Source: a virus | Lineage: Duplodnaviria; Heunggongvirae; Uroviricota; Caudoviricetes | Strand: one strand, 5' to 3' | Virus record (IMG/VR): IMGVR_UViG_3300025073_000001 | Length of the DNA: 64,000 nt | Made by a program: the position numbers and the translations under genes | The notes under the pieces: model-generated | The model's input: the letters and a program-made list of their open reading frames with translations, nothing else | Database searches by the model: none | What the model was told of the DNA's origin: nothing | Shown here: piece by piece, positions 1,154 to 36,613 of the stretch | Position numbering within the stretch: the first letter of the stretch is position 1 | How the letters are laid out: each line of letters begins with the position of its first letter

Positions 1154-1164
1154 ATTGTAATTCT

Positions 1165-1204: not shown

Positions 1205-1218
1205 TTTTCAAGAAATTT

Positions 1219-1533: not shown

Positions 1534-1549
1534 TTAAAATCTCTTCATA

Positions 1550-1990: not shown

Positions 1991-2059
1991 TTTTTATTCT
2001 CCGTAAAGTTAAATGGATTTTATTAGAATCCAAGATTGTTAACATATTATATTTATTCA

Positions 2060-5112: not shown

Positions 5113-5166
5113 ATTCTATAAGTATCTAAATTTTTTGTAAAAAAACTTTGGTTTATTATGATTTTA

Positions 5167-6715: not shown

Positions 6716-7074
6716 TTTGGTAATCTGAACATTAATTCTGAAATGGTGAAATCTTTATTCCTTCCCTTGTTCAAGACAAAATCAAACTTTTTATAAAAGT
6801 CAATTAGCCTTGATTGCGAAGTTGTTCCTTGATAGTCATCTTTTACTGCCGGAGTCAATGTAATTATCTTTTGATTCCTATCTGCGTAATCGCATAATTC
6901 TTCCATCACCTTTGAACCAATTCCTTTTCCACGATCTTCTTTATTGACAATTATTGTGTCTAACTTGATTTTATCCTTGAATTCTGAAACGAAGAAAGAT
7001 TTCAGGTTATATTTTGATTCAATTGATTTTGACCAAGATTCAATATTTTCATTTAATAAAGTTCTAAGTTTCAT
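6712..7074 (-). CDS. GNAT family acetyltransferase-like protein
   Basis: RGKGIGSKVMEELCDYADRNQKIITL resembles GNAT motif A (R-x-x-G-x-G/A). Confidence 0.45.
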   Translation of the reverse strand: MKLRTLLNENIESWSKSIESKYNLKSFFVSEFKDKIKLDTIIVNKEDRGKGIGSKVMEELCDYADRNQKIITLTPAVKDDYQGTTSQSRLIDFYKKFDFVLNKGRNKDFTISELMFRLPK

Positions 7075-14412: not shown

Positions 14413-15594
14413 TTATAAAATATTTATTTTATATGGATTACACTCTAATCCACTATTGACTATCTGACTTACGGCAGAATCACCAATTACTTTTCTTGCT
14501 ATTCCAATTGCTCCATTAATATCTGCATTAATCAACCTTCCAGATGAACTTTGAAATAAGCCTCTTTTCTTTCTTTTTCCTAAATAACTTTCTTGCTTTT
14601 GTAATGGTTCACAGGCTAAATTATCAATTTTTGAAGTATAAGATTCTTCAGTTAAAATAACATCAATACCGACCAATTTTGCTTTATATTGGATTTTCTG
14701 AATTAATTTAGCGTGTGGAATTTGAACAAAATTTTGATTAGTCTTGTGACCAAGGTTTATTCCGTTTTTCCATCCATCATTCTTACCAATAAAAATAGAT
14801 CCGATGTCATTTTCAATGCAGTGATTAATAATATATCTCGAAATTTTATGATTTTTATCTTCTATCCAAAAATTTCGATAATTATTTAATCTGGTAAGTC
14901 TTTTAGAAATTCCTTTAACACCGACATAAGACTTCAATTTAGCATTGTTTTTATTAAACCATTGATTGAAACTTTTAATTATCTTTCCATTAATAATGAA
15001 AGGTTTTCGTCCTACATTATTTATAGTTGAAACATAATTATTCAATCCAAGATCAAGTGATAAGAAGTTTTCTTTGTTTAATTCATGATTAATTTCCTCC
15101 TTTTCATATACAACTTCAACGACATAACAAGTTGCTTGTGGAATGATTCTTACTTGTTTAAATTTAGTTACATTTGTTTTTATAGGTTTTATAATATTAT
15201 TTACAAAATGAATATGACCTCTTTTTAATCTTGATGTGGTAGTTGTGAATGTAATCAAATTCTGTTTATCACCAACTTTAAATTTTGGTAACTTTGGTCT
15301 TCCTTTAAATTTACCAGGATTTTTTTCATATTCCTTCTTTGCTTTCCTCCATGATTTAAAATTTTGAAAAACTTGTTTTATAACTTGTTGAGAAACATTT
15401 GAAGGTAGTGATCTAAAATCTTCTTGATTAAATTCTGCACATAATTTAGAACATTCAAATTCAGAAAAATATTCCTGATTACCAAAGATTGCTTGTCTAT
15501 AATGATAGGTTACAAAGTTGTAAAGTAACCCAGATTTATGACAAATTTCTTCGAACCTATTGTCTAAAATTATATGTCTTTCTGTTAAAATCAT
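14413..15594 (-). mobile_element. tnpB: IS605-family TnpB-like protein (OrfB), solo; zinc finger absent, RuvC-II Glu apparently replaced
   Basis: 393 aa; N-terminal WED/REC-like region; RuvC-I LSLDLGLNNYVSTI; HK-S-YII helix; YTSKID; RuvC-III LINADINGAIGIARK; no CxxC pairs; position aligned with ISDra2 E278 reads IFIGKNDGW. Confidence 0.6.
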
Positions 15595-24281: not shown

Positions 24282-24707
24282 TTATTCGTCATCTTCATCT
24301 TCCATTTCATCCCGTTCTTCCTGAGATACTGGAATGAAAGTTACTTCTGTTCCTTCTTCACCTAACTCTCGATATTGCCCTTCGGCACACATCAATCGGT
24401 GAATCTTACCCATCAACTTGGTATGAGGTAAATTGACAATGATGAAATCGCCATCATCAAATTCCATCAAGGAACGATCTTCATATTCTGGATGTTCTTC
24501 AATTCCGTTTAAAAGTTCAAATTTATCCCTTGGAATCCATCTATTGGTAAATACAAAATCATCAATACCTTCGTTCTTTGCAATTGCAGCAGCAACTTCT
24601 CCAAGTTCCTGATCATGACTCTTAACCCTCTTCGCCTTTTCAATTATATGTTTTGGATAAAACCCGAATATCATTACCGGTAAACACAGCCAATCGTTAT
24701 TCTTCAT
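24282..24707 (-). CDS. acidic hypothetical protein
   Basis: 141 aa, C-terminus EERDEMEDEDDE. Confidence 0.4.
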   Translation of the reverse strand: MKNNDWLCLPVMIFGFYPKHIIEKAKRVKSHDQELGEVAAAIAKNEGIDDFVFTNRWIPRDKFELLNGIEEHPEYEDRSLMEFDDGDFIIVNLPHTKLMGKIHRLMCAEGQYRELGEEGTEVTFIPVSQEERDEMEDEDDE

Positions 24708-24709
24708 GT

Positions 24710-24970
24710 TTAATTACCTTTCTTTAAAATAATATAATAGGTTGAATCTGGATAGAATAAAACTTGGTTTTCTTGCACAATGCAAAATCCTCTTTTTAAT
24801 TCTCTATGAACAGAATATCTTCCAACTTCAATGCCTGTTTCAAGTGAAACGTCCATCCACTTGTTTGAAAAATAATAAGGTAAAATGTGAAACCCAATTG
24901 CCAATCCTAATCCAACGCAGATTAAAGAGTGACCAATTGTCTTTAATTTTTCCTTAAAGTTTTTGCCCAT
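24710..24970 (-). CDS. small membrane protein
   Basis: 86 aa with hydrophobic helix. Confidence 0.35.
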   Translation of the reverse strand: MGKNFKEKLKTIGHSLICVGLGLAIGFHILPYYFSNKWMDVSLETGIEVGRYSVHRELKRGFCIVQENQVLFYPDSTYYIILKKGN

Positions 24971-25058
24971 TCTTCAACTTCTCCGTGGTTGTGAAATTGA
25001 CTTTTGCAATCTTTTTGATTGTTGCTGAAATAATTTTGGCGAGTGATTTTGACATAAA

Positions 25059-25289
25059 TTAATAAATTAAAGATTTTAGATCGTCTCCAGTGAAATTTTT
25101 GATAAACTTTTTTGCCAAATAATCATTTGGAAATGTCGCCGAAGCGGATGAAATATCTTCACAGTTATTTTTAGTAAAAGAAATTAAGACTGAAAAATCA
25201 GTCCATTTCTTCTTCCCAGTTATATGAAACGACAGCCAATATTCGTATTCAGATTCTTCAATCTGAACTTTTCCTGTTTTGATATTCAT
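25059..25289 (-). CDS. hypothetical protein
   Basis: 76-aa ORF preceding tRNA island. Confidence 0.35.
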   Translation of the reverse strand: MNIKTGKVQIEESEYEYWLSFHITGKKKWTDFSVLISFTKNNCEDISSASATFPNDYLAKKFIKNFTGDDLKSLIY

Positions 25290-25310
25290 ATTTAAAAATT
25301 TTATTTTAGA

Positions 25311-25382
25311 AGCCTCTGTTGGGATCGAACCAATGCTTTCCCGCGATCAAAGCGCGGTGTAATACCAATATACGAAGAGGCC
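25311..25382 (-). tRNA. tRNA-Gln (anticodon UUG)
   Basis: hand fold: acceptor GGCCTCT/AGAGGCT (G-U at 1-72), AC arm CCGCG-CTTTGAT-CGCGG, T-loop TTCGATC. Confidence 0.55.
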
Positions 25383-25446
25383 AAAATTAAATATTGATTT
25401 AGGTTCAATATCAAAGACCTACTTATTTTCTAACTAGAATAAAATG

Positions 25447-25520
25447 TCGGGAAAGTCAGATTCGAACTGACACTAACCACGGCTCCAGACCGCGTAACTT
25501 CACCAATAGATCGTTTCCCG
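25447..25520 (-). tRNA. tRNA, anticodon UGG (Pro) with unusual C33
   Basis: acceptor CGGGAAA/TTTCCCG, T-arm GTCAG-TTCGAAT-CTGAC, AC arm CGCGG-TCTGGAG-CCGTG. Confidence 0.45.
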
Positions 25521-25546
25521 AAGAATTGGATTAAAAATTAATTTGA

Positions 25547-25616
25547 GGTTCCGATTGGACTTAAACCAATATAAATGCTTTTGCAGAGCATCACCTTATC
25601 AATCGGACACGGAACC
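25547..25616 (-). tRNA. tRNA-like, probably Cys (GCA) on minus strand; palindromic, strand ambiguous
   Basis: acceptor GGTTCCG/CGGAACC; AC arm ATGCT-CTGCAAA-AGCAT; T-arm ATTGG-TTTAAGT-CCAAT; weak D-arm lacking GG. Confidence 0.35.
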
Positions 25617-25857
25617 ATTTTGGATTAAAAAGAAACGAACAAAACTCTGATGAAACTATGAATAAGTATCTAACCCCAAAGAATTTTCAGTCTCGACTAA
25701 CAGAAAATTTCGTTTCTTATAAAATTAAAATTAATTAGTCAGGATTCGATACCTGAACGATTCATCTCACTGGTTTTGACCGAACCTTTGCAGAATCAAC
25801 TTTAGGTCTGTTGCGTCTATCTTTCGCCACTAACTAATTTTTTCTGAAATTTATTTT

Positions 25858-25891
25858 ACAAAGATACCTGATTAATTTCAATCTACCAAAT
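25858..25891 (-). promoter_or_regulatory. sigma-A-like promoter (TTTGGTAGATTG...GTATCTTTG)
   Basis: TTTG-N20-TAnnTTTG on minus strand. Confidence 0.35.
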
Positions 25892-25908
25892 TTATTTTAA
25901 ATCAAATT

Positions 25909-26178
25909 TCATATTGAGCATTGTTTATATTCATTGGCCGTTTCGCGAATTAAATGCGCCATATTTTCATTAGGCTTTTCAGCAACCCATTTATACCGAC
26001 CATTTAACTTTTCAACGATACCGATTCCTCGAAGAACCGTAGCGACTGACCAATCAATATTCCAAGCAGAACAATGTTTTTGAAGATTGGTAACTTTATT
26101 TTTTTGGCATTTTGTTCTGATCGTTTTCAAAAAATTGGTTAATTCTGGAATTGTTGCGTTTGAAGATCTCGATCTCAT
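25909..26178 (-). CDS. hypothetical protein
   Basis: 89-aa ORF within tRNA island. Confidence 0.35.
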   Translation of the reverse strand: MRSRSSNATIPELTNFLKTIRTKCQKNKVTNLQKHCSAWNIDWSVATVLRGIGIVEKLNGRYKWVAEKPNENMAHLIRETANEYKQCSI

Positions 26179-26203
26179 AATTTTGAAAATTTATTTTAGT
26201 TTG

Positions 26204-26277
26204 AGCCGGGTGTTGGATTTGAACCAACGATCAATTGTTTGTAATACAATCTGCGTAGACCGCTTGCATAACCCGGC
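26204..26277 (-). tRNA. tRNA-Val (anticodon UAC)
   Basis: acceptor GCCGGGT/ACCCGGC, T-arm GTTGG-TTCAAAT-CCAAC, AC arm ATTGT-ATTACAA-ACAAT. Confidence 0.55.
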
Positions 26278-26491
26278 TTAAAAAATCAGAACATCATCTT
26301 TTTTCGATTTACAAATTCGTTGATTTAAAGTTGCTGTTGATGTTCTTTTGGCTCAGGGAGGGCAAAAATAAATTTTAATCAATAACCAAGCCCTTTCCCC
26401 TGAAAGTTGTGATGTGCTGTTCGGTTATTTATTCAGATTTGCATTTTTTAGTTTACAAGTGTTCTACCAACTGAACTATAAAAGGGATTCA

Positions 26492-26566
26492 CTCCTTTTA
26501 GCGAGACTCGAACTCCGACCTTTGCCGTGACAGGGCAACATACCTACCAATTATACGACACGTTCG
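26492..26566 (-). tRNA. tRNA-Asp (anticodon GUC); acceptor/T-stem imperfect, ends approximate
   Basis: perfect AC arm TTGCC-CTGTCAC-GGCAA, D-loop TAATTGGTAGG, T-loop TTCGAGT; T-stem only 3 bp. Confidence 0.4.
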
Positions 26567-26890
26567 ATCAAATATAAATAAACATTTATGTCGGCTTCGT
26601 TCTTTTCAATATTTATTTTATTTACCTCTATGCTACCTTCACGATTAGTGGCTGCACATTGAATGAATACAATCATCTCCAAGTTGACAAGACTGGCGAG
26701 GTTAAATAAATATTATTCGAACAAACTTGGTAACGTTCAAGTTAGACGGTTAAAAAGTTAAATCAATTTTATCGCAATTGCGATAAGGTTTCATAATCAA
26801 GTTCCTTTTAAATCCCCTTGTGGGTTAATTATACGCAAAGATAAACCCTTTATTTCAGACTACCAAGTAAATCTAAAGATCTTTTTCAAA

Positions 26891-27148
26891 TTATTTTCTC
26901 AGATCCTTCCAATCTTCTAAATATTTTTCATATGAACGAATGCAAAAATTTAATTCATTTGTAAATCGTTCTGGGTTCCAATTCTGCAAATTAATACTTT
27001 GACTTCCTTCCCACACCGAACTCCAATAATTGAATCCAAACCAAGATTTTTTCTTAACTTGAAGCCAAATATCTGGATATAAACTAAGAAGCGTGAATCG
27101 TTCAGTTATTAATCTGTAATTGGGATGATCGTTTGATTTAAAAGTCAT
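26891..27148 (-). CDS. hypothetical protein
   Basis: 85-aa ORF. Confidence 0.35.
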   Translation of the reverse strand: MTFKSNDHPNYRLITERFTLLSLYPDIWLQVKKKSWFGFNYWSSVWEGSQSINLQNWNPERFTNELNFCIRSYEKYLEDWKDLRK

Positions 27149-27162
27149 TTTATTTTATTTTT

Positions 27163-27244
27163 GCACGAAGGTAGAGATTCGAACTCTAAACTGCTCTTAC
27201 GAATTACCGGGTTGGAACCGGCCAGTCACGCCAATGAGCCTCCG
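27163..27244 (-). tRNA. tRNA, 82 nt; candidate anticodon CCA; isotype uncertain
   Basis: acceptor GCGGAGG/CCTTCGT (two G-U), canonical T-arm TAGAG-TTCGAAT-CTCTA, stem-loop GCCGG-TTCCAAC-CCGGT; D-arm unclear. Confidence 0.35.
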
Positions 27245-27285
27245 CGTTTGGAACCATCCTGCTACGCTTTCAAGTTCCTTTTACT

Positions 27286-27642
27286 TTATTTCACTGCAAC
27301 CCATTCTGTCTTTTCGACAATTTTGGATTTGACTTGACTCATGTGATTGTATTCTGAACCATGATGACTTGCATACCATCCGTCAAAACTGATGAAAATT
27401 CCGTGATCGATGAAGTGATAAACTTTCCAATATTGATCACCTTGACCTTCTCCTCCAAATTCATCTACCATTTCAAATTTACCTAATTTGGCAAATTCTT
27501 CTTTGAATTCACCTTCTTCATCAATGTCATCGGCTGATTCTGGAACGGCTTCATGCATCCATCTTTCTGGATCACAATCGTTTTCTGAGAAAAGGTCTGA
27601 ATTGATGATTGCACTGATTTCTTCAAATGTAAGTTTATTCAT
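27286..27642 (-). CDS. paralog family A (triplicated 110-120 aa family, conserved C-terminal half)
   Basis: ...YWKVYHFIDHGIFISFDGWYASHHGSEY...VEKTEW; similar to 27903..28208 and 28201..28533. Confidence 0.45.
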   Translation of the reverse strand: MNKLTFEEISAIINSDLFSENDCDPERWMHEAVPESADDIDEEGEFKEEFAKLGKFEMVDEFGGEGQGDQYWKVYHFIDHGIFISFDGWYASHHGSEYNHMSQVKSKIVEKTEWVAVK

Positions 27643-27645
27643 ATT

Positions 27646-27906
27646 TTATAATTGTTTGAAATAATGACTAATTGCAGGACGTCCGGTTCTTATCACACTT
27701 CCGACACCAATATCCATTTTATTATGTTCCCGATAAACAGATGAAATATGTGGAGTTAAATCTTCGTAAACTTCAAACAAAACGTTGGTTGAATCTTCAC
27801 CTAAATATTTCACGATTTGTTCTATTTTTATTCCCTGGAATTCTCCTTGAGCAATTTCCATTTCATATCGATACAACGATCCAATGACTAATTCTGAAAA
27901 GTTCAT
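27646..27906 (-). CDS. hypothetical protein
   Basis: 86-aa ORF. Confidence 0.35.
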   Translation of the reverse strand: MNFSELVIGSLYRYEMEIAQGEFQGIKIEQIVKYLGEDSTNVLFEVYEDLTPHISSVYREHNKMDIGVGSVIRTGRPAISHYFKQL

Positions 27907-28208
27907 TCGTAAATTGTGACTAATTTTTCTATTGGGTTAACGAATTGATATTTAACGTATTCTGTTCCGTGAAATGACCGATACCAGCCAATAAATTTGA
28001 CGTAAAGATCTAAATCTTTGAAGAAATAGACAGATTCAAGTTCGGCTTGACCGTCAAAATCATATTCATTCTTGACATCTTTACATTCAAAGTTTCCGAG
28101 AACGCAACTAACATCTTCCTTAATATCTCCTCCAACTAAGTCTTGAAGTGGAAATTCATCTTGAAATTTATCAAAACTTTCAGCAAATTTTTCCTGAGTG
28201 TTATTCAT
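27903..28208 (-). CDS. paralog family B (start at internal Met MNNTQEKF)
   Basis: ...VYFFKDLDLYVKFIGWYRSFHGTEYVKYQFVNPIEKLVTIYE. Confidence 0.4.
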   Translation of the reverse strand: MNNTQEKFAESFDKFQDEFPLQDLVGGDIKEDVSCVLGNFECKDVKNEYDFDGQAELESVYFFKDLDLYVKFIGWYRSFHGTEYVKYQFVNPIEKLVTIYE

Positions 28209-28533
28209 AAACCGTGATTGTTTTTTCAACTGGGTGAACTTGAGATAATTCTTCAAACTGACATCCATCGTAACTTTCTAACCAGCCAGTAAATCTGATA
28301 AAAACATCATGTTCGATGAAATGATAAACTCTGAAAACTTTGACAGATGAATAATAACTGTCAGATTCAAATCCACCGGATTCAACTTTTTTAATTGTTC
28401 CAAGTGTCAAGGTATAATCTTCGGTTGAATCGACTAAATTTTCATCATCAACATCTAATCCAATGATGAAATCATCTCCCCATTCTTTTTGCTTGATTAA
28501 ATCAGAAATTTGATTGAAGGTAAGTCTTTCCAT
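28201..28533 (-). CDS. paralog family C
   Basis: ...VFRVYHFIEHDVFIRFTGWLESYDGCQFEELSQVHPVEKTITVYE. Confidence 0.45.
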   Translation of the reverse strand: MERLTFNQISDLIKQKEWGDDFIIGLDVDDENLVDSTEDYTLTLGTIKKVESGGFESDSYYSSVKVFRVYHFIEHDVFIRFTGWLESYDGCQFEELSQVHPVEKTITVYE

Positions 28534-29329
28534 AATCTTCGTCGTAATTTAGAAAAAAGTTTAAATTGTTAATTATGTAAATGATCATCCATAAAGGAGC
28601 AAGTCTATCGACCAATCCCTTTAGGCATTTTTGATAAGCAATTTTCTTGTTCTTGATTATTCCAGTTAAAATGAACCTTTCCAACGCTAATGTCTGTGCT
28701 TCTTCAATCACAACCCTTTGACGAATATGTTCTGAAACCGAATTAAACTTTTCTGGATCAACCCAAACAGTTGTCTGGGCAGGTTCTTGGAGAAATTTAA
28801 AAGCAGGAACGTCATAATATTTAACCGCTTCATGCAATTCATCGTGAACGTTTTCGCGACTTACGGCATCATCAAAGAATTCAGATGATTCTTTTGTAAA
28901 ATCTGCTCTCCATTTCTCTCCAAACTTCTCAGTCCAAGAATCATGCAATTCATAGAATAAAGGTTCAATAATTTTACAACCTTCCTCAGCCATTAAAAAT
29001 AAATCAAAGAAAGTTTTATCCTTGTGAACTTTATCAAATGGAACGTGAGATGCTTTCAAGGTGAAATAAATGTTTCTAAGAAATGATTGAGTTGGAAAAC
29101 CTAGTTCACTTCTACGTATTGGACCTTCTATTATTTTCCACAAAATTGGAATCCAATGCAATTCAGTCTTTGAACCATATAATTCCTTGAAATATTTTAC
29201 ATCTTCTGGAGTTGGTTCGTTTTCAACCAAGACATCATAATCAGTATTATCTTTCAAACGTTTTTGAATCTTGCAATTATCAGGGAATAATTTCACGAAT
29301 AACCTGGATCCAATTAGAAAATGTTGCAT
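28502..29329 (-). CDS. possible Pol-beta-superfamily nucleotidyltransferase-like protein
   Basis: IGSRLFVKLFPDNCKIQKRLKDNTDYDVLV fits hG[GS]...DxD NTase signature; weak. Confidence 0.3.
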   Translation of the reverse strand: MQHFLIGSRLFVKLFPDNCKIQKRLKDNTDYDVLVENEPTPEDVKYFKELYGSKTELHWIPILWKIIEGPIRRSELGFPTQSFLRNIYFTLKASHVPFDKVHKDKTFFDLFLMAEEGCKIIEPLFYELHDSWTEKFGEKWRADFTKESSEFFDDAVSRENVHDELHEAVKYYDVPAFKFLQEPAQTTVWVDPEKFNSVSEHIRQRVVIEEAQTLALERFILTGIIKNKKIAYQKCLKGLVDRLAPLWMIIYIINNLNFFLNYDEDYGKTYLQSNF

Positions 29330-29346
29330 AAATTAGATTTAAATTG

Positions 29347-29431
29347 ATCCGGATAAGCGATTCAAACGCTTGATGGGCAAAATGCCGATAGATTACAAAT
29401 CTATTTCCTTCGATCACTCGGACAATCCGGA
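29347..29431 (-). tRNA. class-II-shaped tRNA (85 nt, long variable arm) with anticodon loop TTTGTAA (UGU)
   Basis: acceptor TCCGGAT/ATCCGGA, U8-G9, D 3-bp stem + 11-nt loop, AC arm ATAGA-TTTGTAA-TCTAT, variable arm GGCA-TTT-TGCC, T-arm AAGCG-TTTGAAT-CGCTT. Confidence 0.5.
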
Positions 29432-29440
29432 ATAAAATTG

Positions 29441-29514
29441 TAGCCCACATAGGATTCAAACCTACATCTTCAGAATCCGAAGTTCTGTGCCTTATTCAGT
29501 TAGACCAATGGGCC
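29441..29514 (-). tRNA. tRNA-Arg (anticodon UCG)
   Basis: acceptor GGCCCAT/GTGGGCT, AC arm CAGAA-CTTCGGA-TTCTG, T-arm GTAGG-TTTGAAT-CCTAT, D-loop without GG. Confidence 0.55.
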
Positions 29515-29538
29515 AAAATAAGATTAAAAATAATACTG

Positions 29539-29613
29539 CGCCTCCTGAAAGATTCGAACTTCCAACCCCAAAGTTAACAACTTTTCGCTCTATCCGGTTA
29601 TAGCTAAGGAGGC
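29539..29613 (-). tRNA. tRNA-Asn (anticodon GUU)
   Basis: acceptor GCCTCCT/AGGAGGC, AC loop TTGTTAA, T-arm GGAAG-TTCGAAT-CTTTC. Confidence 0.55.
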
Positions 29614-29712
29614 AATTTAAACTGTCTATTTCATTGGTTAATCTCCCGTTGACTCTCTGCGAAATAGACAATAATCGAACAGATAACATTTAGAGATTTT
29701 CCTTTACAATTG

Positions 29713-29786
29713 TACGGGATATCGGGATCGAACCGATTCTATTTCAGAGTGGAAATCTGATACACCACCATTTATGCGTATCCCGC
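29713..29786 (-). tRNA. tRNA-Gly (anticodon UCC)
   Basis: acceptor GCGGGAT/ATCCCGT, AC arm TCAGA-TTTCCAC-TCTGA, T-arm ATCGG-TTCGATC-CCGAT. Confidence 0.55.
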
Positions 29787-29793
29787 GATTATT

Positions 29794-30114
29794 CTATTCA
29801 ATTCCCCATCGTTTCTTCGTTGCTTCGTAATCAACAATGGTTATTTCATCAACTGCTTTCAACAACTCTTCATCATCTAATGCGTCTTTTAATTTATAAC
29901 CTTTCATTGGTTGAATTTGAAAGCAATAGCCATCACCACTAGCATATATCTCTCTATTCTGAACAACCTCTCTTTTATTCGCAATATAGTCTTCAAAACT
30001 TTCACCAATGTCATCACTGACGTTATCTAGACATTCTGCAATTGAATCATAAATTCCAGTTTCACCAATTTCTCCACCCTTGTAATCGTGACAAGTGACT
30101 AATAAATATTTCAT
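29794..30114 (-). CDS. hypothetical protein
   Basis: 106-aa ORF. Confidence 0.4.
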   Translation of the reverse strand: MKYLLVTCHDYKGGEIGETGIYDSIAECLDNVSDDIGESFEDYIANKREVVQNREIYASGDGYCFQIQPMKGYKLKDALDDEELLKAVDEITIVDYEATKKRWGIE

Positions 30115-30130
30115 AAATTACGTTGTTTTG

Positions 30131-30203
30131 TAGACCTGGAGGAACTCGAATCCCCAACTTTCACCTTAGAACGATGAATTTCTTCCAATTGAATTACAGG
30201 TCC
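30131..30203 (-). tRNA. tRNA-Arg (anticodon UCU)
   Basis: acceptor GGACCTG/CAGGTCT, AC arm TCATC-GTTCTAA-GGTGA, T-arm GGGGA-TTCGAGT-TCCTC. Confidence 0.55.
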
Positions 30204-30210
30204 AATTAAT

Positions 30211-31080
30211 TTAAAATTTCATTTTTCTTCCTTTAATCCATCCTTCTAATAAAAATGAATCAAGTTCTTCTTTCTTTATCTTTTTGTTTTTAAAGTCATT
30301 ATGAATCCAACAAGAACCATATTGAGAATTACCTTCTCCTTTCTGATGAATTTTACTCGCATCGCTTATTCTTTTTTTAGATATGTTTGAGTGAGTCTTT
30401 CCACTAAACATATTAAATAATTCTCCAGATTTTAACCTATGATCATGAATACTTATGTGATAATATTTTCCATGAACATCAACCGCAGTCATTTTATTAG
30501 AATTAATATGTCTTATATCTCCATTTAAAAGTCTGGGGTCATCAATAAAGCACATAAATGTCTTTCCTTGATTATCAATTACTGTGCATTTTCCTTTACA
30601 AGTGTGGGTCAATTCTCCAGAAATCCATCTTGGATCATCAACTGAAATTCTTTGGATATTTCCTTCTTCATCCTTAACTGTCACCTTTCCAACATTTATG
30701 CCAACTAATTCACCACTTAACCAACGTTCATCTGTTTTATGAACTCTGAAACAATTACCTTCGGAATCTTTAACTGAAATTGAATCAATAGTTAACCATC
30801 CTTCTCCACCCAATTTAATGTTATAAACATCTTTTCTTGCAATGAATTTTCTATCAACTAATTCAGATTCTTTAAGAATCATCTCTTCTGCATTATCAAA
30901 ATCAAATAGTATTTCTTTAACGAAATTTTCTATTCCATGCTTTTTAATTGCAACCTTCAAATAACTTCCAGATCCCATATAACCATCATCAACATTTTCA
31001 GTTGAGTGAATTCCTATGTAAATCTTTTGATTGATTAAATTTGTAATTTGATAAACTAAATAATGTCTTTTCTTTTTCAA
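30211..31080 (-). mobile_element. GIY-YIG homing endonuclease (Seg-like) inside tRNA island
   Basis: YLVYQITNLINQKIYIGIHST...YMGSG; NUMOD3-like NMFSGKTHSNISKKRISDA; repeated beta-hairpin DNA-binding-like units. Confidence 0.6.
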
Positions 31081-31221
31081 GTTCGTAACTCCTTATATTT
31101 TCATATAAGTATCGAACTTTTAGAATTTTCACTATCTATTCCGGCCTCGAACCGAACTCTTCCGGGTTTCAACCGGACGCATCTTACCAAAGTGTTGCTT
31201 AAAGGACTTAATTTAATTCTG

Positions 31222-31308
31222 TGAGAGCAGTTGGAATTGAACCAACAACGGCTTATTAGGCTACGATTTTACAGAACGCTTCAACCAACCAATAGTTGAC
31301 TTACTCCC
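31222..31308 (-). tRNA. tRNA-Tyr (anticodon GUA), class II
   Basis: acceptor GGGAGTA/TGCTCTC, D TCAA...TTGA, AC loop CTGTAAA, long variable arm, T-arm GTTGG-TTCAATT-CCAAC. Confidence 0.55.
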
Positions 31309-31504
31309 TTGATTTAGTTTGATTCTTCTATCAATTTAGAACATACTAACAAACAAGAACCAACTCCGTCATTTCTTTAACTCAGTAATTTAAAGGATAT
31401 AATTTGCTCCCCTACTTTATTACACGATCCAAATACGCCTTTGGAAGGCTTTCGTCTTTATTACGGGCAAATACGACAGGGCGCTTTTTCTTCCCTTAAT
31501 TACA

Positions 31505-31542
31505 CTACAAAGATAAGTATTGTTTTTCAATTTAACAAATAA
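31505..31542 (-). promoter_or_regulatory. sigma-A-like promoter module (TTTGTTAAATTG...TTATCTTTGTAGTGTAATTAAG)
   Basis: TTTG-N20-TAnnTTTG; one of three paralogous modules in tRNA island. Confidence 0.4.
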
Positions 31543-31573
31543 TTATCCAAGTTTTTTCAAAATAAATTTTACC

Positions 31574-32386
31574 TTACTGTTGATTGACGATTACTGGAGT
31601 CTTTCCGTCAGTAATGATCACCTTATTATCAGTATTCCGAATTGCATCAATCCATTTATCTTGCAAAATTTCCTTCGTTAAACCTTGAGTTTTGACCAAG
31701 TCCTTTTCCCGATAAATCTTCGCTTTCTCTAATTCCATCCTTGCAATTTCCAATTCATTCTTGGCTTGTTCTGCTTGTTGAATCGTATTGTTTCTATTTT
31801 CAATCGCCTTAATCATTGATTCTGGAGGACGAAGTCCTGATCGCAAAGTCATCAGATTGAAGAACTTTCCAGTAAATGCAGTCTTCAAACGTGCTTCAAC
31901 AGCAAGTTCATATTTAGCAACATTCTTCAAAAGTTCGTCAGTTGCAAATTTCCTCGCTTCTTCTTGATATGCATCTAAAACTAATTGGTTCAAAATATTA
32001 GATTCAATGTTATCCATGAAACCTGAAACGTCTGCCGGATTAACGTGCTTGTAATTAAAAATAATTTCTGGACCTTTTCCTCGAATTGCTTCATAAGCAT
32101 ACGTCGGATCAACTTTATAATAACCTCCATCATTTGTGGTTACACCCAATTCTGGAGCATCCGCCTTTTGCTCATACATTGGCACTTGGTACAACTCACT
32201 ACACGGACCAAGTGGACCTTGACTTCCAGTTACAATTTTGAAATCCGACAATCCATTCTTGCCGCAATTTTCCATTAGAACCCCTTCAAAATTAGGTTCC
32301 GGACGATTGCAGCCAGTGCAACCAGTTTGTGAAAATTGATAAATGCCCAATAGGGCGAAGAAAATAAAGAACTTAATGTGTTTCAT
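31574..32386 (-). CDS. secreted lipoprotein with SPFH/band-7-like C-terminal region
   Basis: signal peptide MKHIKFFIFFALLGIYQFSQTGC; coiled region resembling prohibitin/HflC. Confidence 0.35.
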   Translation of the reverse strand: MKHIKFFIFFALLGIYQFSQTGCTGCNRPEPNFEGVLMENCGKNGLSDFKIVTGSQGPLGPCSELYQVPMYEQKADAPELGVTTNDGGYYKVDPTYAYEAIRGKGPEIIFNYKHVNPADVSGFMDNIESNILNQLVLDAYQEEARKFATDELLKNVAKYELAVEARLKTAFTGKFFNLMTLRSGLRPPESMIKAIENRNNTIQQAEQAKNELEIARMELEKAKIYREKDLVKTQGLTKEILQDKWIDAIRNTDNKVIITDGKTPVIVNQQ

Positions 32387-32593
32387 TTTGAAAATGATTT
32401 TAGTTTGCCCAAAGGGCTTTAAGTGTTAAAAATGTATCGACAATATCTGTAATATCCATATAATGATAGTGGAAGTGTCAGATAAGTCAATTGGAAGATT
32501 TTTGATTGATATAAATAGATATTACCTAGATAAATCAAAAATGCCAACAAAGGCAGTGAAAGATATTTTAATTCGTTTCTCATGTTTTAAAAT

Positions 32594-32893
32594 TTAATTT
32601 ATCGCAACTCTGTCAAAGACGATTTTAGTTCTGGTGATATCAGGTCTTTGACTCAGATAAAATATCTGATCTTTATCAACATCCAAAAACACGGGCCAAA
32701 CTTGTCTGAATGGATCTCTAAACTTTGCGAGAGATTTTTCACAATTACAAGATTCAATTCGATAATCTTTAATCGAATCGGGTGCAAAGTGATTGGCGAA
32801 AATGCCCTGATTTTTAACTATTTCAGGTCTGGATTGCTGTCCAAATGAATTGAACGATACGAACGTTAAAAAAAGAATCGCAATTAATTTCAT
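32594..32893 (-). CDS. small secreted protein (start trimmed to MKLIAILFLTF)
   Basis: signal peptide ...FNSFGQQ; longer ORF would overlap tRNA-Leu. Confidence 0.4.
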   Translation of the reverse strand: MKLIAILFLTFVSFNSFGQQSRPEIVKNQGIFANHFAPDSIKDYRIESCNCEKSLAKFRDPFRQVWPVFLDVDKDQIFYLSQRPDITRTKIVFDRVAIN

Positions 32894-32908
32894 ATTAAAG
32901 AATTTTAG

Positions 32909-32990
32909 TAGTCCGAAAGAGATTTGAACTCTTAATCCCGAAGGCAACGCGGTTTAAGCACGTCATGTATTCCATTTCCATCACCGGACC
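32909..32990 (-). tRNA. tRNA-Leu (anticodon UAA), class II
   Basis: acceptor GGTCCGG/TCGGACT, U8G9, AC arm ACGTG-CTTAAAC-CGCGT, variable arm CC-TTCG-GG, T-arm AAGAG-TTCAAAT-CTCTT. Confidence 0.6.
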
Positions 32991-33002
32991 AAATTAAAAA
33001 TG

Positions 33003-33077
33003 TGAATCACCTCCGACTCGAACGGAGAAAACTAGACTTTCTAAAAATCTAAGGTCTACCAATTGCCTCAGTGATCC
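33003..33077 (-). tRNA. tRNA with anticodon UAG (Leu-type) but class-I length (short variable region)
   Basis: acceptor GGATCAC/GTGATTC, D 3-bp stem + long loop, AC arm AGATT-TTTAGAA-AGTCT, T-arm CTCCG-TTCGAGT-CGGAG. Confidence 0.45.
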
Positions 33078-33360
33078 AAATTTTATCTTTCTCCTTCTAA
33101 GAAATCATACATCAAAAGACAAGGCCGATCAATGGAATGAAATCTTTGAATTTAATGGCAATCAATCTATCTTCAAATAAAGAGATCAATAACCAAACTG
33201 CAATCAAAGTTGAATAACCGTCAATGAGGAAATTCATAATTTTTATTTTAAATTTTATCAGGTTTATTCTATATTCGAGAAGTACGGAACTTATCCTGAA
33301 TTATTCCTTCACGCTTTCGACGTTATATCGGAACTCAAGTTTTTACTTACTGGTGGATTC

Positions 33361-33440
33361 TATGAGCATCAAACTCATCTGTTTTTCCTCTGTGCAAGAG
33401 AGGTGACCACATCAAGCAGTCCCAGAACCCAGATTAATTG
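33361..33440 (-). tRNA. tRNA-Ala (anticodon UGC) with encoded 3' CCA; atypical T-loop TTTGATG
   Basis: acceptor GGGTTCT/AGAATCC + A + CCA; AC arm CCTCT-CTTGCAC-AGAGG; T-arm ATGAG-TTTGATG-CTCAT. Confidence 0.45.
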
Positions 33441-33632
33441 CATTTAATTTATTCTTGATATAATCCAATTCCCCAATCTATTTAAAAAAATCAGTCAGGA
33501 ATCAAACCTGAATTACGCCAACCTTGGATTGGCTGCAACGACCTGGAGTCGCTTCAATATCTGTATTTCAAATCCTCGCCGCCAAGATTGCAATAACTTA
33601 GAAGCCAATTCTCTGAAAAGACGTATCTGATT

Positions 33633-33866
33633 TTATCTTATGAGATAATCTGAATATTCAGTTTTTGCTAGAACTGATTTGACAAATCCTCTGTAACTTT
33701 CCGAATCTTTATCCGGAACAAATTTTTTATTTTCATCTAACTTGGCTCCATAGTGATAGATATTTTCATATCGCTGCGTTCCTTTATGGATCAAATTATA
33801 AATGATGTGAAACCAAATCCTTGGATTCTTTTCGATTTCCACCTTTAATTTATGAAGTTTGCTCAT
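33633..33866 (-). CDS. hypothetical protein
   Basis: 77-aa ORF. Confidence 0.35.
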   Translation of the reverse strand: MSKLHKLKVEIEKNPRIWFHIIYNLIHKGTQRYENIYHYGAKLDENKKFVPDKDSESYRGFVKSVLAKTEYSDYLIR

Positions 33867-34099
33867 TTCAAATCTCGATGAGGATCATTAATATGAACTC
33901 CACTGAATATCAACCCCATACCAAATACAACCGCTAAAATAAAGCAACCCTGCACCCATATTCCTTCTGTGAAGGATCCACCAATTATACAGACTGCTGT
34001 CAACACTGATAACGCTCCATTTCCCTTGGCTTCACCTTCATTGTGATAATCAACGTATCGATTATATCTTTTTCGTTCTTTGTTCGTGAACTTTTGCAT
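33863..34099 (-). CDS. small membrane protein
   Basis: 78 aa, two hydrophobic helices. Confidence 0.35.
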   Translation of the reverse strand: MQKFTNKERKRYNRYVDYHNEGEAKGNGALSVLTAVCIIGGSFTEGIWVQGCFILAVVFGMGLIFSGVHINDPHRDLK

Positions 34100-34326
34100 A
34101 ATTGTTATTTTTGTTCAACAAAGATAAAATCTTTATTTCAGATTACCAAATTATTTTAATAAAAAAATTCTCCAAAGCAAAGATTCGAACTTTGATCGCC
34201 CAATTACGTCAGGTTGTTATGAGCAAAGTGGTTGTGGCGTTGAACCTGAAACTTGACTATTCTATTCATCAAGCCTATCCTTATTCGCTTATGTCCACAC
34301 TCCCGTCTACCAATTCCGGCACGATG

Positions 34327-34399
34327 GAGAATTTAGAGTGATAGGTGGAATTCGAATCCACGACCTTCGGAACCACAAACCGACGCTCTAACCAACTGA
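34327..34399 (-). tRNA. tRNA-His (anticodon GUG)
   Basis: acceptor GTGATTG/CTATCAC, canonical D-arm GCTCAGTTGGTTAGAGC, AC loop TTGTGGT, T-arm GTGGA-TTCGAAT-TCCAC. Confidence 0.55.
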
Positions 34400-34401
34400 G
34401 C

Positions 34402-34492
34402 TACAATCACGGAAGAAGGTGTGAGATTCGAACTCACGGAACGGAATGATTACCGTCCTCTGGTTTTCAAGACCAGCGCCATCGCCCACTCG
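34402..34492 (-). tRNA. tRNA-Ser (anticodon UGA), class II
   Basis: acceptor GGAAGGT/ACCTTCT, U8G9, AC arm CTGGT-CTTGAAA-ACCAG, variable arm ACGG...CCGT, T-arm GTGAG-TTCGAAT-CTCAC. Confidence 0.6.
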
Positions 34493-34797
34493 GCCAACCT
34501 TCCGTGTGCGGCACTTTCTCCGCCCGTCACCATTATCATTTCTTTGCAAATTTCGGCTGACTTATTGGTTACGCCACCGTTTTTTAAATCAATCCTGTCC
34601 AGTTTCAGTCTGGAATTAAGACTCTGTGTCGGTGATTACACTGTCTCAGACACTAGGCTCCGTTTCTTAGTCACCTTTCCGATAGAACCAAATGCCAACA
34701 AATCTTTTCCATAAACAACGATGCTGAAACATCTGGCTTATTCCTTGAAAGGTCTTTCGCATTTCGCCTGTTTACTTCAAAGCAGGATTAAAAATTT

Positions 34798-34870
34798 GTA
34801 GTGCTGAGCGGTTACGATCCGCCGTCTCCGAGTTGAAAGCCCGGTATTCTAACCAATTAAAATACAGCAC
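34798..34870 (-). tRNA. tRNA-Glu (anticodon UUC); T-loop ATCGTAA atypical
   Basis: acceptor GGTGCTG/CAGCACT, D-loop AATTGGTTAG, AC arm CCGGG-CTTTCAA-CTCGG, T-stem GGCGG/CCGCT. Confidence 0.5.
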
Positions 34871-35035
34871 CAAAATATATTCTAAAACAAGTGGAGGGCA
34901 ATTCATCAGTCAAACGTGAAGTTTTGCAACGTTCTTCTATCTCCCTGTGACGTTTTATCCGTCCCTATTGACGGAGGATAAGATTTGACTTCAACTCTGC
35001 CCTGGAGGAAATTTTAATTTCCCCGTACACACTGT

Positions 35036-35230
35036 CTAACGTTCTCTTTCCTTCAAGTTCAGATAAATGAGATAAATTAATTCTACCCACAACAAACTCA
35101 ACATTCCTGTTCCAACTGTTACTGACTTGTTGAAGTTAAATGATAAATATCCAGTTAAGAATAAAAACACAATTACTTCATAAGTCAGCCAAGTATTCAA
35201 TCTTCCAATTCTTTCTTTCAATGTTCTCAT
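35036..35230 (-). CDS. small membrane protein
   Basis: 64 aa, hydrophobic. Confidence 0.3.
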   Translation of the reverse strand: MRTLKERIGRLNTWLTYEVIVFLFLTGYLSFNFNKSVTVGTGMLSLLWVELIYLIYLNLKERER

Positions 35231-35632
35231 TAACCAAACATTTCAGCGAACTTCTTGATTCTTTTCTTTGGAACTGAATAAAGTTCAATTCCGCAAATCA
35301 ATTTGATTCGCTTCTTAATCTTAATGATTTTTGACTTTTTCATATCAATAACCAAAGTTTAAATTGTGGATCAACTGGGATTTGAACCCAATTATTATAT
35401 GACCTCTCGAGACTAAATTCTGTTTTCCAGAAATCCTAATCTATCAAAGTAATATTATTTCTTTGAATCATTGATTAGGTTTTGTTTTAGATCATATTCA
35501 CTACCAAAGTTGACCCAAAATGTAATTTCGAGGCGTTTTTCTCTTCGTTTAAACTATTTCTTCGCATTACACGAAGTAAAGGATTCCCACCTTCCTAAAC
35601 CCGTTTCCAGGTTCTTGTTCCTCTTAATTACC

Positions 35633-35668
35633 TTACAAAGATAAAACCTTAATTTCAATCTGCCAAAT
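35633..35668 (-). promoter_or_regulatory. sigma-A-like promoter module (TTTGGCAGATTG...TTATCTTTGTAAGGTAATTAAG)
   Basis: TTTG-N20-TAnnTTTG; paralog of 31505 and 35856 modules. Confidence 0.4.
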
Positions 35669-35855
35669 GATTTTTGACTTTTTCATTTACTTGAATTTAA
35701 ACTGCAATTAAGTAAGGTCTGAGTCGTTTCCGTTAAACCCGAATTGCTATCTCCCTGCGGGATCATCTCAGAAGTAACTTTGTCTTACCAGTATTAATTC
35801 GAACGGGACAAAGAAATGATTGAACATTTGTTTCCTACTTCCTTCCTTAATTACA

Positions 35856-35891
35856 CTACAAAGTTATAACCTTAATTTGAATTTACCAAAT
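35856..35891 (-). promoter_or_regulatory. sigma-A-like promoter module (TTTGGTAAATTC...TATAACTTTGTAGTGTAATTAAG)
   Basis: TTTG-N20-TAnnTTTG; paralog of 31505 and 35633 modules. Confidence 0.4.
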
Positions 35892-36343
35892 TAATTTGGA
35901 AGTTTTTTAAAAGTTTTTTTCTGAGTGAATAATTGTTGTCTGAACCGAACCTGAACTTGAACGTCTTTAAATCCAGTATCAAGGACGATTGCCAATCTTT
36001 TCTGCCATTGAATCTCGAACGAGAAAGGAGAGTTATAGCCAATTGGATCTAAATTCATGTTCAAATAAGGCATATAAACCCAAAACCCTAAATCTTCCTC
36101 TTTCCAATTCAATGCTCTGATGCCTAATTTCGCATTTAATCGCGACTCTGTTAACTTGAAATCCGTTAGGTAAGTTAGTTGTAACTTGACCCATGATGAC
36201 CGTTGCTCAAATTGAACAAATACGTTTGAGGTGAGATCTGAGTTGACCGAAGTTCCAAGATACAGTGAATTTTCAAGTGGGTAACCTTTCTGAGAAAATC
36301 CAAGGAATGGGATTAAAAGAAAAATAAATATCAATGATTTCAT
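35891..36343 (-). CDS. secreted hypothetical protein
   Basis: signal peptide MKSLIFIFLLIPFLGFSQ (Bacteroidota-like). Confidence 0.45.
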   Translation of the reverse strand: MKSLIFIFLLIPFLGFSQKGYPLENSLYLGTSVNSDLTSNVFVQFEQRSSWVKLQLTYLTDFKLTESRLNAKLGIRALNWKEEDLGFWVYMPYLNMNLDPIGYNSPFSFEIQWQKRLAIVLDTGFKDVQVQVRFRQQLFTQKKTFKKLPN

Positions 36344-36382
36344 TTTAAAATCCTCCTTAAATAATTATCAGAAAATTTATAA

Positions 36383-36613
36383 TTATAACTCATCCCAATT
36401 GAGGATTTCTTTTTTTGTCCATTGCGTATTCAATATCTCTCCATTTGACATTGGCGTTTCTGGATCAACGACGCAATCAGATTCAGATTTTTTCACTTTC
36501 GTCTTGTTATTTGGAAATTTGACGAAAAATGCTTTTTCTGATAGGACAATTGGGCATTCGGAAGTTTCATTGAATGCTGGATTTGGGTGCGGATTGTGAA
36601 TTTTAATTGTCAT
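36383..36613 (-). CDS. hypothetical protein (start trimmed to internal Met)
   Basis: ORF 36383..36670; internal Met avoids frame-overlap with 36615..36821. Confidence 0.3.
   Translation of the reverse strand: MTIKIHNPHPNPAFNETSECPIVLSEKAFFVKFPNNKTKVKKSESDCVVDPETPMSNGEILNTQWTKKEILNWDEL

Follow-up and report, generated by a model that had tools for sequence, protein, structure and literature searches.

A phage tRNA island with four tRNAs that carry A19 and U56

We analysed a 64,000-nucleotide (nt) stretch of the Caudoviricetes record IMGVR_UViG_3300025073_000001, referred to here as the window. Its minus strand carries, from 25,300 to 35,500, an island of transfer RNA (tRNA) genes interspersed with small open reading frames (ORFs), a DUF7275 gene, a GIY-YIG gene and six promoter modules. 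Four tRNAs of this island (Cys, Thr, Arg-UCG and Ala) have A19 and U56 where tRNAs ordinarily have the G19-C56 elbow pair. With default settings, ARAGORN called 12 tRNAs in the window, all on the minus strand and between 25,309 and 34,871. A 12-kilobase (kb) scan with the Rfam tRNA family RF00005, using its curated gathering score of 29 bits as the threshold, yielded 13 genes at or above that score, and a narrow scan added Thr-UGU at 45.7 bits. In addition, positions 24,500-36,500 were scanned, without filters, with a covariance model of 150 tRNAs from this phage family (R2). The minus strand holds all of the 24 best R2 matches, of which 17 reach 28 bits or more (Arg-UCG, Arg-UCU, His, Asn, Glu, Val, Cys, Leu-UAA, Leu-UAG, Ser, Gln, Gly, Thr, Pro, Ala, Tyr and an Asp remnant), the weaker ones being a Phe-like match (24.4 bits), an 83-nt Trp(CCA)-like match (19.3 bits) and five tRNA-like pieces. 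A preliminary description, made from the letters of the window, had counted at least 18 minus-strand tRNA genes; all 18 of these calls match something real, but the Asp gene is a remnant, the gene read as "CCA?" is non-canonical and the Ala gene has no Rfam match.

With at least 17 co-oriented tRNAs and a GIY-YIG ORF that is a predicted endonuclease (a weak Pfam match), the locus has the make-up of a phage tRNA island with a homing endonuclease. The DUF7275 protein, which served as an anchor, has 66 homologues, and the longest contig with one of them is 229 kb; the region is an accessory region of a jumbo phage of ~230 kb. The four variant genes are as follows.

25546-25616, minus strand: tRNA-Cys(GCA), with G18-A19 and U56 (Rfam 53.1 bits, with alignment; R2 47.6 bits)
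29347-29431, minus strand: tRNA-Thr(UGU), 85 nt with a long variable arm, with G18-A19 and U56 (ARAGORN default; Rfam 45.7 bits, with alignment)
29441-29514, minus strand: tRNA-Arg(UCG), with G18-A19-A20 and U56 (Rfam 48.3 bits; R2 67.9 bits)
33351-33430, minus strand: tRNA-Ala(UGC), with G18-A19 and U56 (ARAGORN at the 85% threshold; R2 29.4 bits, E 1.4e-6; cloverleaf fold, z -2.64; no Rfam match)

The D-loop and T-loop read AACUGAAUA and UUUGAAU in Arg-UCG, AGUGAUCGA and UUUGAAU in Thr-UGU, AUUGAUA and UUUAAGU in Cys-GCA, and GCUUGAUGU and UUUGAUG in Ala-UGC. All four D-loops contain UGA, in which G18 is kept and position 19 is A. As G18, U54, U55, a purine at 57 and A58 are also retained throughout, these genes depart from the canonical elbow at positions 19 and 56 only; what varies is a single tertiary pair, and the motif itself is kept. 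The remaining 13 solid tRNAs of the window have GG with C56, so that the variant makes up 4/17. U is placed at position 56 without a shift of loop boundaries in the Rfam alignments of Arg, Cys and Thr and in the R2 alignment of all four, and ARAGORN, Rfam and R2 agree on the placement of G18-A19 and U56.

The T-loops given in the preliminary description (TTTGAAT, TTTAAGT and TTTGATG, with T for C56) were correct as sequences, and the U56 assignment is borne out by both models. Its statement that the D-loop lacks G18-G19 in at least two of the genes was too narrow in one respect and too strong in another, considering that all four D-loops are altered but that G18 stays and only G19 has become A. 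It had also named rejection by covariance models, or a loop placement that restores C56, as grounds for giving up the variant. Neither was seen for Cys, Arg-UCG and Thr, which score 53.1, 48.3 and 45.7 Rfam bits with a full cloverleaf, and for Ala the rejection consists only in the missing Rfam call.

Positions 19 and 56 vary together

Relatives of the island were reached through a protein database (homologues of the DUF7275 protein) and contig look-ups, giving the loci L002-L021 and L183; L-numbers are labels for the contigs or loci compared with the window. All of these related loci carry large co-oriented tRNA islands, with 200 tRNAs over the window and the loci (ARAGORN default). The reference phage collection held no close relatives of the window, returning generic tRNA matches only, and no match when the Arg tRNA alone was the query; IMG/VR, queried with a single DUF7275 protein and with the exact Arg T-arm string, returned nothing. 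The four variant tRNAs recur letter for letter in another public record (L001, from the Logan contigs of run SRR3989314), which may not be independent of the window's source.

A structure-anchored parse was used to read 236 tRNAs of the family. GA at positions 18-19 occurs with U56 eight times and never with C56, and GG never occurs with U56 (Fisher 4e-14, for cases that are not phylogenetically independent and that involve at least six isotypes). The mutual information between positions 19 and 56 is 0.232 bits, compared with at most 0.041 between position 19 and any other T-loop position, and position 18 shares little with any of them. An alignment-free count over the 150 best covariance-model matches gave 138 with GG and C56, 4 with GA only and U56, 7 with neither and C56, and 1 with neither and G56. 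Column-wise pair counting on the 150-sequence covariance-model alignment was discarded, as D-loops differ in length, which moves GG by one column and produces false mismatches.

A third Watson-Crick form, C19 with G56, was found in two relatives: Lys-CUU of L006 (2929-3001; AACUGCUA and UUGGAAG, with UGC in the D-loop) and Ser-GCU of L002 (13442-13533). In an alignment of 12 Arg sequences, positions 19:56 are G:C in six and A:U in five, the one exception being a row misaligned by MAFFT; the stems in this alignment are 96.6% paired, and 19/22 pairs are altered on both sides. Taken together, G:C is the majority state, A:U is seen 8-10 times and C:G twice, and there are no mixed states. The coupling is strict and beyond chance. 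Considering that GA is found only with U56, GG never is, and C19:G56 occurs in two relatives, the 19:56 tertiary pair is kept by compensation, and the C19:G56 form is what would be expected if pairing, and not base identity, is what is retained.

The A19:U56 state is derived in the window and recurs in single genes

The closest relative is L183, in which the neighbouring protein is 85% identical. Its Arg-UCG orthologue has the same 5' acceptor strand, 5' strand of the D-stem and variable loop as the window gene, with AAU-GGAUA and UUCGAGU in the loops, and its long-armed Thr-UGU has GG and C56. The Cys orthologues of L012 and L013 have the acceptor and D stems of the window's Cys but AGUGGUCUA with C56, and the long-armed Thr genes of L016 and L003 have AGUGGUCGA with C56. 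The Ala homologue of L008 (6662-6738) has an odd core (G8, G9, G14, U21) in common with the window's Ala but GCUUUGGGU with C56. These canonical orthologues indicate that A19:U56 is derived in the window genome. The compensated change from G19-C56 to A19-U56 that the preliminary description had proposed holds in all four genes, with both sides changed together relative to the orthologues.

The same state recurs in other isotypes of distant relatives, namely Asp, Met and Arg-ACG of L018 and Asp of L006, with canonical orthologues elsewhere. It is thus an alternative state that single tRNA genes have taken on repeatedly, and it does not characterise a phage lineage. The "lineage-specific tRNA-core variant" first envisaged has to be given up, as only 4/17 tRNAs of the window carry the variant, the orthologues in its closest relatives (L183, L012, L013, L016 and L008) have GG and C56, the state recurs elsewhere, and it is present in cellular tRNA-Arg(ACG) of Bacteroidota (see below).

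We also compared 25290-25760 of the window with 13450-13900 of L012. The tRNA genes in this interval are 41% (Pro), 45% (Gln) and 66% (Cys) identical, compared with 70% for the spacers. BLAST alignments to relatives often end at tRNA borders or within a tRNA. The tRNA genes appear to be swapped as cassettes inside a conserved scaffold.

The same pair occurs in tRNA-Arg(ACG) of Bacteroidota

Viral and genome collections were searched with a degenerate pattern of the Arg loops (AACTGAATA..GTTTGAATC). Nearly all of the ~160 matches were chance matches in coding DNA; the real ones were tRNA-Arg genes of Bacteroidota, and pseudo-copies of these, only. Three bacterial contigs of 42 to 300 kb carry cellular tRNA-Arg(ACG) genes of this type: L100 (Flavobacteriales, 59.6 Rfam bits), L089 (Flavobacteriales, 54.3 bits, on a 300-kb contig) and L067 (Chitinophagaceae, 53.6 bits, on a 207-kb contig). 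Each has the D-loop AACUGAAUA and the T-loop UUUGAAU, as do the window's Arg-UCG and Arg-ACG of L018, and the other tRNAs on the same contigs (Ser, Pro, Arg-UCU, Met and Gln) are canonical. Its presence in cellular tRNA-Arg(ACG) indicates that A19:U56 is compatible with an essential decoding job.

The window's Arg gene is 74% identical to that of L017, which has GG and C56, and 74% identical to that of L183 (in a separate pairwise alignment), compared with 57-61% for the bacterial genes. As it is nearer to phage Arg tRNAs with GG and C56 than to the bacterial genes, a parallel change is indicated rather than a capture, and recent capture of a host tRNA-Arg was rejected.

The promoter modules bear on the host. 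The pattern TTG-N20-TAnnTTTG, which we take to be that of Bacteroidota sigma-A promoters (TTG at -33 and TAnnTTTG at -7), occurs 15 times in the window compared with 2.44 expected, with 14 occurrences on the gene (minus) strand and 6 in the island. The host of the phage is most likely a member of Bacteroidota, judging by these sequences.

Arrays of tRNA-like elements were seen beside the bacterial tRNA-Arg genes. Next to the true tRNA-Arg(ACG) of the Chitinophagaceae contig L067, positions 697-5146 hold 11.6 tandem copies of a 363-nt unit with 96% identity, each with a tRNA-Arg-like element in which a long, tetraloop-capped stem takes the place of the anticodon arm. Shorter arrays lie beside the Flavobacteriales genes (L100 3803-4262 and L089 4524-5000), and at 1620-1689 of the phage locus L183 there is a tRNA-like gene whose "anticodon" loop is 3 nt long.

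Sequence features of the four genes suggest function

None of the four genes has a disrupted stem, and their differences from the orthologues are compensatory. The anticodon loops are of 7 nt with U33, position 37 is a purine, and identity elements are present: G3:U70, A73 and an encoded CCA are retained in Ala, as are A20 and C35 in Arg, and Thr does not differ from ordinary phage tRNA-Thr in its acceptor stem and anticodon arm. At the level of sequence, the four genes look functional, and their tRNAs would presumably be expressed, processed and charged.

For each codon family, the island offers roughly one tRNA with U34 or G34. Among the phage ORFs, A-ending codons predominate in the four- and six-codon families (GCA 51%, GGA 52%, CCA 56%, GAA 88%); the anticodons of the island fit these codons, and they also read the U- or C-ending pair of most two-codon families.

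Proposed explanation and alternatives

We consider it likely that the four genes encode working tRNAs in which compensatory substitution exchanged the elbow pair, the genes themselves being fast-evolving and often replaced, and that the result is a recurrent, tolerated state. G19-C56 is the outermost Watson-Crick pair of the elbow, stacking on purine 57, G18-U55 and U54-A58 and presenting a flat face to ribonuclease P (RNase P) and the ribosome (PMC7912444, PMC4810234). In Cys, Thr, Arg-UCG and Ala, an A19-U56 pair of the same shape would take its place at the outer corner of the L-shape, and the other contacts (G18 with U55, the reverse-Hoogsteen U54-A58, and purine 57) would stay. D-loop and T-loop would still lock, and RNase P and the ribosome would still find a flat pair to stack on, held by one hydrogen bond fewer; the A19-U56 elbow is probably slightly weaker. 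From the coupling of the two positions we infer that A19 and U56 pair physically. The change would be near-neutral, arising by compensatory substitution in phage tRNA genes that would be evolving fast and replaced frequently.

Several observations weigh against this reading. First, the Ala gene has no Rfam match at E<=10 in a 301-nt scan, and its core is non-canonical in having G8, G14, U21 and an 8-nt variable loop, although R2, ARAGORN and the minimum-energy fold support it with the values listed above. Second, 4/17 in one genome is above the family-wide rate (binomial P ~5e-4), an excess that suggests a genome-specific cause beyond plain neutral drift. Third, the variant does not follow the GC (guanine + cytosine) content of the loci: three cases are in L018, which has the highest GC content (40%), and none is in L021 (30%). 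AT mutation pressure was accordingly rejected as the sole cause. Fourth, the adjacent Arg and Thr genes have the same T-loop and may represent one replacement event instead of two substitutions.

An adaptive role of A19-U56 is possible. In its fuller form, A19-U56, perhaps along with other elbow and body variants of the family, would have been selected because it alters how the tRNA corner is read by a nuclease or toxin of host defence, by a T-loop modification enzyme, or by a factor with which the phage discriminates between its own tRNAs and those of the host. The excess in one genome just described would fit this, as would the greater divergence of tRNA bodies than of spacers against L012 (Pro 41% and Gln 45%, compared with 70%), the other elbow and body states of the family (A54:U58, C19:G56, gain and loss of variable arms) and the failure of AT pressure alone to explain the distribution. 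That phage tRNAs escape anticodon nucleases through loop changes is an established precedent. However, known tRNA-directed defences act mostly on anticodon loops, and we found no candidate nuclease, toxin, repair or tRNA-modification gene in the window. The closest relatives do well with canonical elbows, and as a housekeeping tRNA of the host phylum has the same pair, A19-U56 alone cannot mark a tRNA as phage-derived. On balance, we regard selection of this kind as unlikely.

It can also be imagined, with little probability in our estimate, that the tRNA "body" (19:56, 54:58 and the variable arm) would be a variable module in this group of Bacteroidota-infecting jumbo phages, and partly in their hosts, and that elbows, arm changes and gene replacement would all be selected by some shape-reading factor, for instance a defence nuclease or a discriminator encoded by the phage, and would not be tolerated drift.

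Decay offers another account, in which the U56 genes would be pseudogenes drifting under AT pressure and the coincidence of A19 and U56 would have no structural meaning. The genome has 33.5% GC, the island does hold decayed tRNAs (the Asp remnant, a truncated Phe-like gene and weak pieces), and Ala combines further core departures with the lack of an Rfam match. Nonetheless, decay would yield neither perfect coupling of two distant positions nor the C19:G56 form, and it sits poorly with the intact stems and compensatory changes of the four genes, with their retained identity elements, with the 45-53 Rfam bits of Arg, Cys and Thr, and with the cellular tRNA-Arg(ACG) that has the same pair. Arg-ACG of L018 likewise has the same loops as the window's Arg despite diverged stems (62% identity). 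We therefore think decay quite improbable as the source of the variant.

A match to the host, by which phage tRNAs would copy host elbow states through capture or through selection for host enzymes and host Cys, Thr and Ala would then also have A19:U56, is highly improbable: the loops of the window's Arg-UCG and of Arg-ACG of L018 are exactly those of Flavobacteriales and Chitinophagaceae tRNA-Arg(ACG), but the idea fits only Arg, and weakly so given the identities reported above, the canonical tRNA-Arg(UCU) on the same bacterial contig indicates that the host arginyl-tRNA synthetase needs no A19, and Ser, Pro, Met and Gln on the three bacterial contigs are canonical as well.

Comparison with known systems

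Compensatory replacement of the elbow pair leaves the four tRNAs close to the canonical type, of which they are a modest variant and not a new kind. Compared with RF00005, they have the same 7/5 acceptor and T stems, 7-nt anticodon and T loops, G18, U54, U55, purine 57 and A58, and they differ in A19 and U56 and, for Ala, also at positions 8, 14 and 21 and in the length of the variable loop. The Bacteroidota tRNA-Arg(ACG) genes of L100, L089 and L067 are alike to the window's Arg in that both loops are identical, and unlike it in anticodon (ACG compared with UCG) and in their stems, which differ (57-61% overall identity).

Large lytic phages of the T4 and T5 type carry tRNA clusters, and the tRNA region of T4 has the GIY-YIG homing endonuclease SegB. 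The island resembles these clusters in its many co-oriented tRNAs, small ORFs and GIY-YIG gene, with anticodons that fit the codon usage of the phage, and differs from them in its Bacteroidota-type promoters and its unusual mix of variable-arm and elbow variants.

In animal mitochondrial tRNAs, contacts between D-loop and T-loop are weakened or lost (PMC4394434). The window shares with them a departure from G19-C56 in an AT-rich genome, but its tRNAs are not of the mitochondrial type, considering the Watson-Crick replacement pair, the presence of all other elbow contacts and the normal loop sizes. Allo-tRNAs are marked by an 8/4 or 9/3 arrangement of acceptor and T stems (Mukai et al. 2017, PMC5389517). 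Thr-UGU is like them in joining a long variable arm to an anticodon that is not that of Leu, Ser or Tyr; however, its stems (7-bp (base pair) acceptor, 5-bp T) show that it is not an allo-tRNA, and as its acceptor stem and anticodon arm resemble those of ordinary phage tRNA-Thr, Thr identity is likelier.

G19-C56 is described as conserved in all three domains of life (PMC7912444, PMC4810234) and is treated as a near-invariant of tRNA architecture. Searches for A19-U56, and for G19-C56 together with phage, returned no earlier description in the searchable literature; exceptions of this kind are probably listed in tRNA databases and in older papers beyond its scope. The phage family constitutes a natural mutational series at 19:56 (G:C, A:U and C:G, with no mixed states), and together with A19:U56 in a housekeeping tRNA-Arg(ACG) of a bacterial clade, where it appears to be fixed, this series is clean comparative evidence that pairing geometry is required and base identity is not. 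The variants are also ready substrates for measuring the cost of one elbow hydrogen bond. Since default ARAGORN misses Cys and Ala and Rfam misses Ala, tRNA counts for phages in Bacteroidota viromes are probably underestimates. The variable-arm architecture and the replacement of tRNA genes, described below and above, may merit more attention than the U56 variant itself.

Other features of the island and its surroundings

The remaining tRNA genes and tRNA-like elements of the island are listed first, followed by protein genes and promoter modules.

25310-25382, minus strand: tRNA-Gln(UUG), GG and C56 (ARAGORN default, Rfam, R2)
25447-25520, minus strand: tRNA-Pro(UGG), GG and C56, with C33 (Rfam 33.8 bits; R2 29.7 bits)
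26204-26277, minus strand: tRNA-Val(UAC) (ARAGORN default, Rfam, R2)
26428-26560, minus strand: tRNA-Asp(GUC) remnant without acceptor stem (26498-26560), then a fragment like a 5' half (26428-26485) (Rfam 23.7 bits, partial; R2 30.5 and 14.7 bits)
27164-27245, minus strand: Trp(CCA)-like non-canonical tRNA, 83 nt, no regular D-arm, long variable region (ARAGORN at the 80% threshold; R2 19.3 bits)
29539-29613, minus strand: tRNA-Asn(GUU) (ARAGORN default, Rfam, R2)
29713-29786, minus strand: tRNA-Gly(UCC) (ARAGORN default, Rfam, R2)
30131-30203, minus strand: tRNA-Arg(UCU), GG and C56 (ARAGORN default, Rfam, R2)
31133-31207, minus strand: Phe(GAA)-like tRNA without 3' acceptor strand (ARAGORN at the 80% threshold; R2 24.4 bits)
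31222-31308, minus strand: tRNA-Tyr(GUA) (Rfam 29.8 bits; R2 28 bits)
32909-32990, minus strand: tRNA-Leu(UAA), long variable arm (ARAGORN default, Rfam, R2)
33003-33077, minus strand: tRNA-Leu(UAG), short variable loop, a class-I-like Leu (ARAGORN default; R2 45.8 bits; 97% identical to L012 3369-3430)
33487-33576, minus strand: weak, doubtful tRNA-like element, T-arm UCAGG-UUUGAUU-CCUGA followed by a T run (ARAGORN at the 85% threshold; R2 16.2 bits)
34170-34328, minus strand: tRNA-like element with D-arm and T-arm and 103 extra nt at the place of the anticodon arm (R2 18.5 bits)
34337-34410, minus strand: tRNA-His(GUG) (ARAGORN default, Rfam)
34413-34503, minus strand: tRNA-Ser(UGA) (ARAGORN default, Rfam)
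34799-34871, minus strand: tRNA-Glu(UUC), T-loop AUCGUAA (Rfam 54.2 bits, with alignment)
28502-29329, minus strand: DUF7275 gene directly downstream of Thr, the anchor for finding relatives (Pfam PF23940, 4e-29)
30211-31080, minus strand: putative homing-endonuclease gene of the GIY-YIG (SegE-like) type (Pfam PF19835, E 6.3e-5, under the curated cutoff)
25859-25889, minus strand: promoter module TTG-N20-TAnnTTTG, upstream of Cys-Pro-Gln (motif scan)
26836-26866, minus strand: promoter module (motif scan)
31508-31538, minus strand: promoter module, upstream of Tyr (motif scan)
34119-34149, minus strand: promoter module (motif scan)
35636-35666, minus strand: promoter module (motif scan)
35859-35889, minus strand: promoter module at the upstream edge of the island (motif scan)

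A long variable arm on tRNAs other than Leu, Ser and Tyr was found in 18/200 default ARAGORN tRNAs of the family (Lys 4, Thr 3, Met 3, Asn 2, Asp 2, and one each of Gly, His, Pro and Trp). Examples are 29347-29431 and 27164-27245 of the window, L012 6288-6374, L008 8980-9069, L013 4267-4358 and L002 12503-12591. The first of these, the window's Thr, is a mosaic that matches the ordinary 73-nt Thr of L012 in its acceptor stem and anticodon arm and the long-armed type in its D-arm, variable arm and T-arm. The second, the Trp(CCA)-like gene, has an orthologue in L006 (7514-7596) whose stem changes are compensatory. We found no description of long variable arms in phage tRNAs in the searchable literature. 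The reverse situation is seen in tRNA-Leu, where 13/20 family genes have a short variable loop of 5-8 nt in place of the long arm expected of bacterial tRNA-Leu, including the window's Leu-UAG and L012 3363-3438 and 3497-3571.

The T-loop of tRNA-Glu, AUCGUAA, has A54 and U58 for U54 and A58. Among the default ARAGORN tRNAs, A54:U58 is present in 14/185 family members, compared with U54 and A58 in 168, and mixed states are almost absent; it is a second compensated T-loop variant. In tRNA-Pro(UGG), the anticodon loop UCUGGAG has C33 instead of the near-universal U. The element at 33487-33576 had been considered as a further "Trp" tRNA with a U56-like T-arm, but this is doubtful, as it has no D-arm, no Rfam match and no homologue in the relatives, and its T-arm is followed by a T run.

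Incomplete tRNAs were found at three places. First, the Phe(GAA)-like tRNA (in the region 31081-31207) has D, anticodon and T arms but lacks a matching 3' acceptor strand. Together with the 45 nt preceding it, the GIY-YIG gene shows 80% identity to L013 3004-3423, with homology beginning at 31125 of the window, where the acceptor strand of the Phe-like tRNA belongs, which suggests that an endonuclease cassette truncated the tRNA. Second, in the region of the Asp(GUC) remnant (26428-26560), a hairpin comes after the remnant, as does a perfect D-arm of canonical type (UAGUUCAGUUGGUAGAAC) from which no tRNA continues, and this region may be debris of recombination between tRNA genes. Third, the element at 34170-34328, directly after His, combines a Leu-type D-arm with a good T-arm, and ARAGORN in intron mode calls a 161-nt gene there; it may be an intron, an insertion or debris.

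Two non-coding blocks are better conserved than the tRNAs adjoining them and have no Rfam match. About 100 nt downstream of the CCA of Ala (33251-33357) are 93% identical to L013 1137-1243, which also lies directly after an Ala tRNA, and a 190-nt block (26567-26755) after the promoter at 26836-26866 is 85% identical to L012 9534-9744. It is conceivable that the block after Ala is a "theta" ribozyme of the hepatitis delta virus (HDV)-like type (bioRxiv 10.1101/2023.06.13.544163), although there was no Rfam match and a nested fold was not discernible by eye.

Outside the island, mobile nuclease genes are unusually dense, with two more GIY-YIG/NUMOD3 genes, one HNH/NUMOD3 gene and one TnpB gene (OrfB_IS605, with a Cas12f-like TNB domain) at 3933-4967, 7071-8000, 9229-10236 and 14413-15594 of the window. 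The rest of the window also encodes amidases and sugar enzymes, and no tRNA-processing enzyme was found among its genes. Two tRNAs of the relatives, at L002 11321-11398 and L012 4952-5028, have the anticodons UUA, which would read the stop codon UAA, and UCA, which would read UGA. None of this kind was seen in the window, and these tRNAs hint at stop-codon suppression or recoding in part of the phage group.

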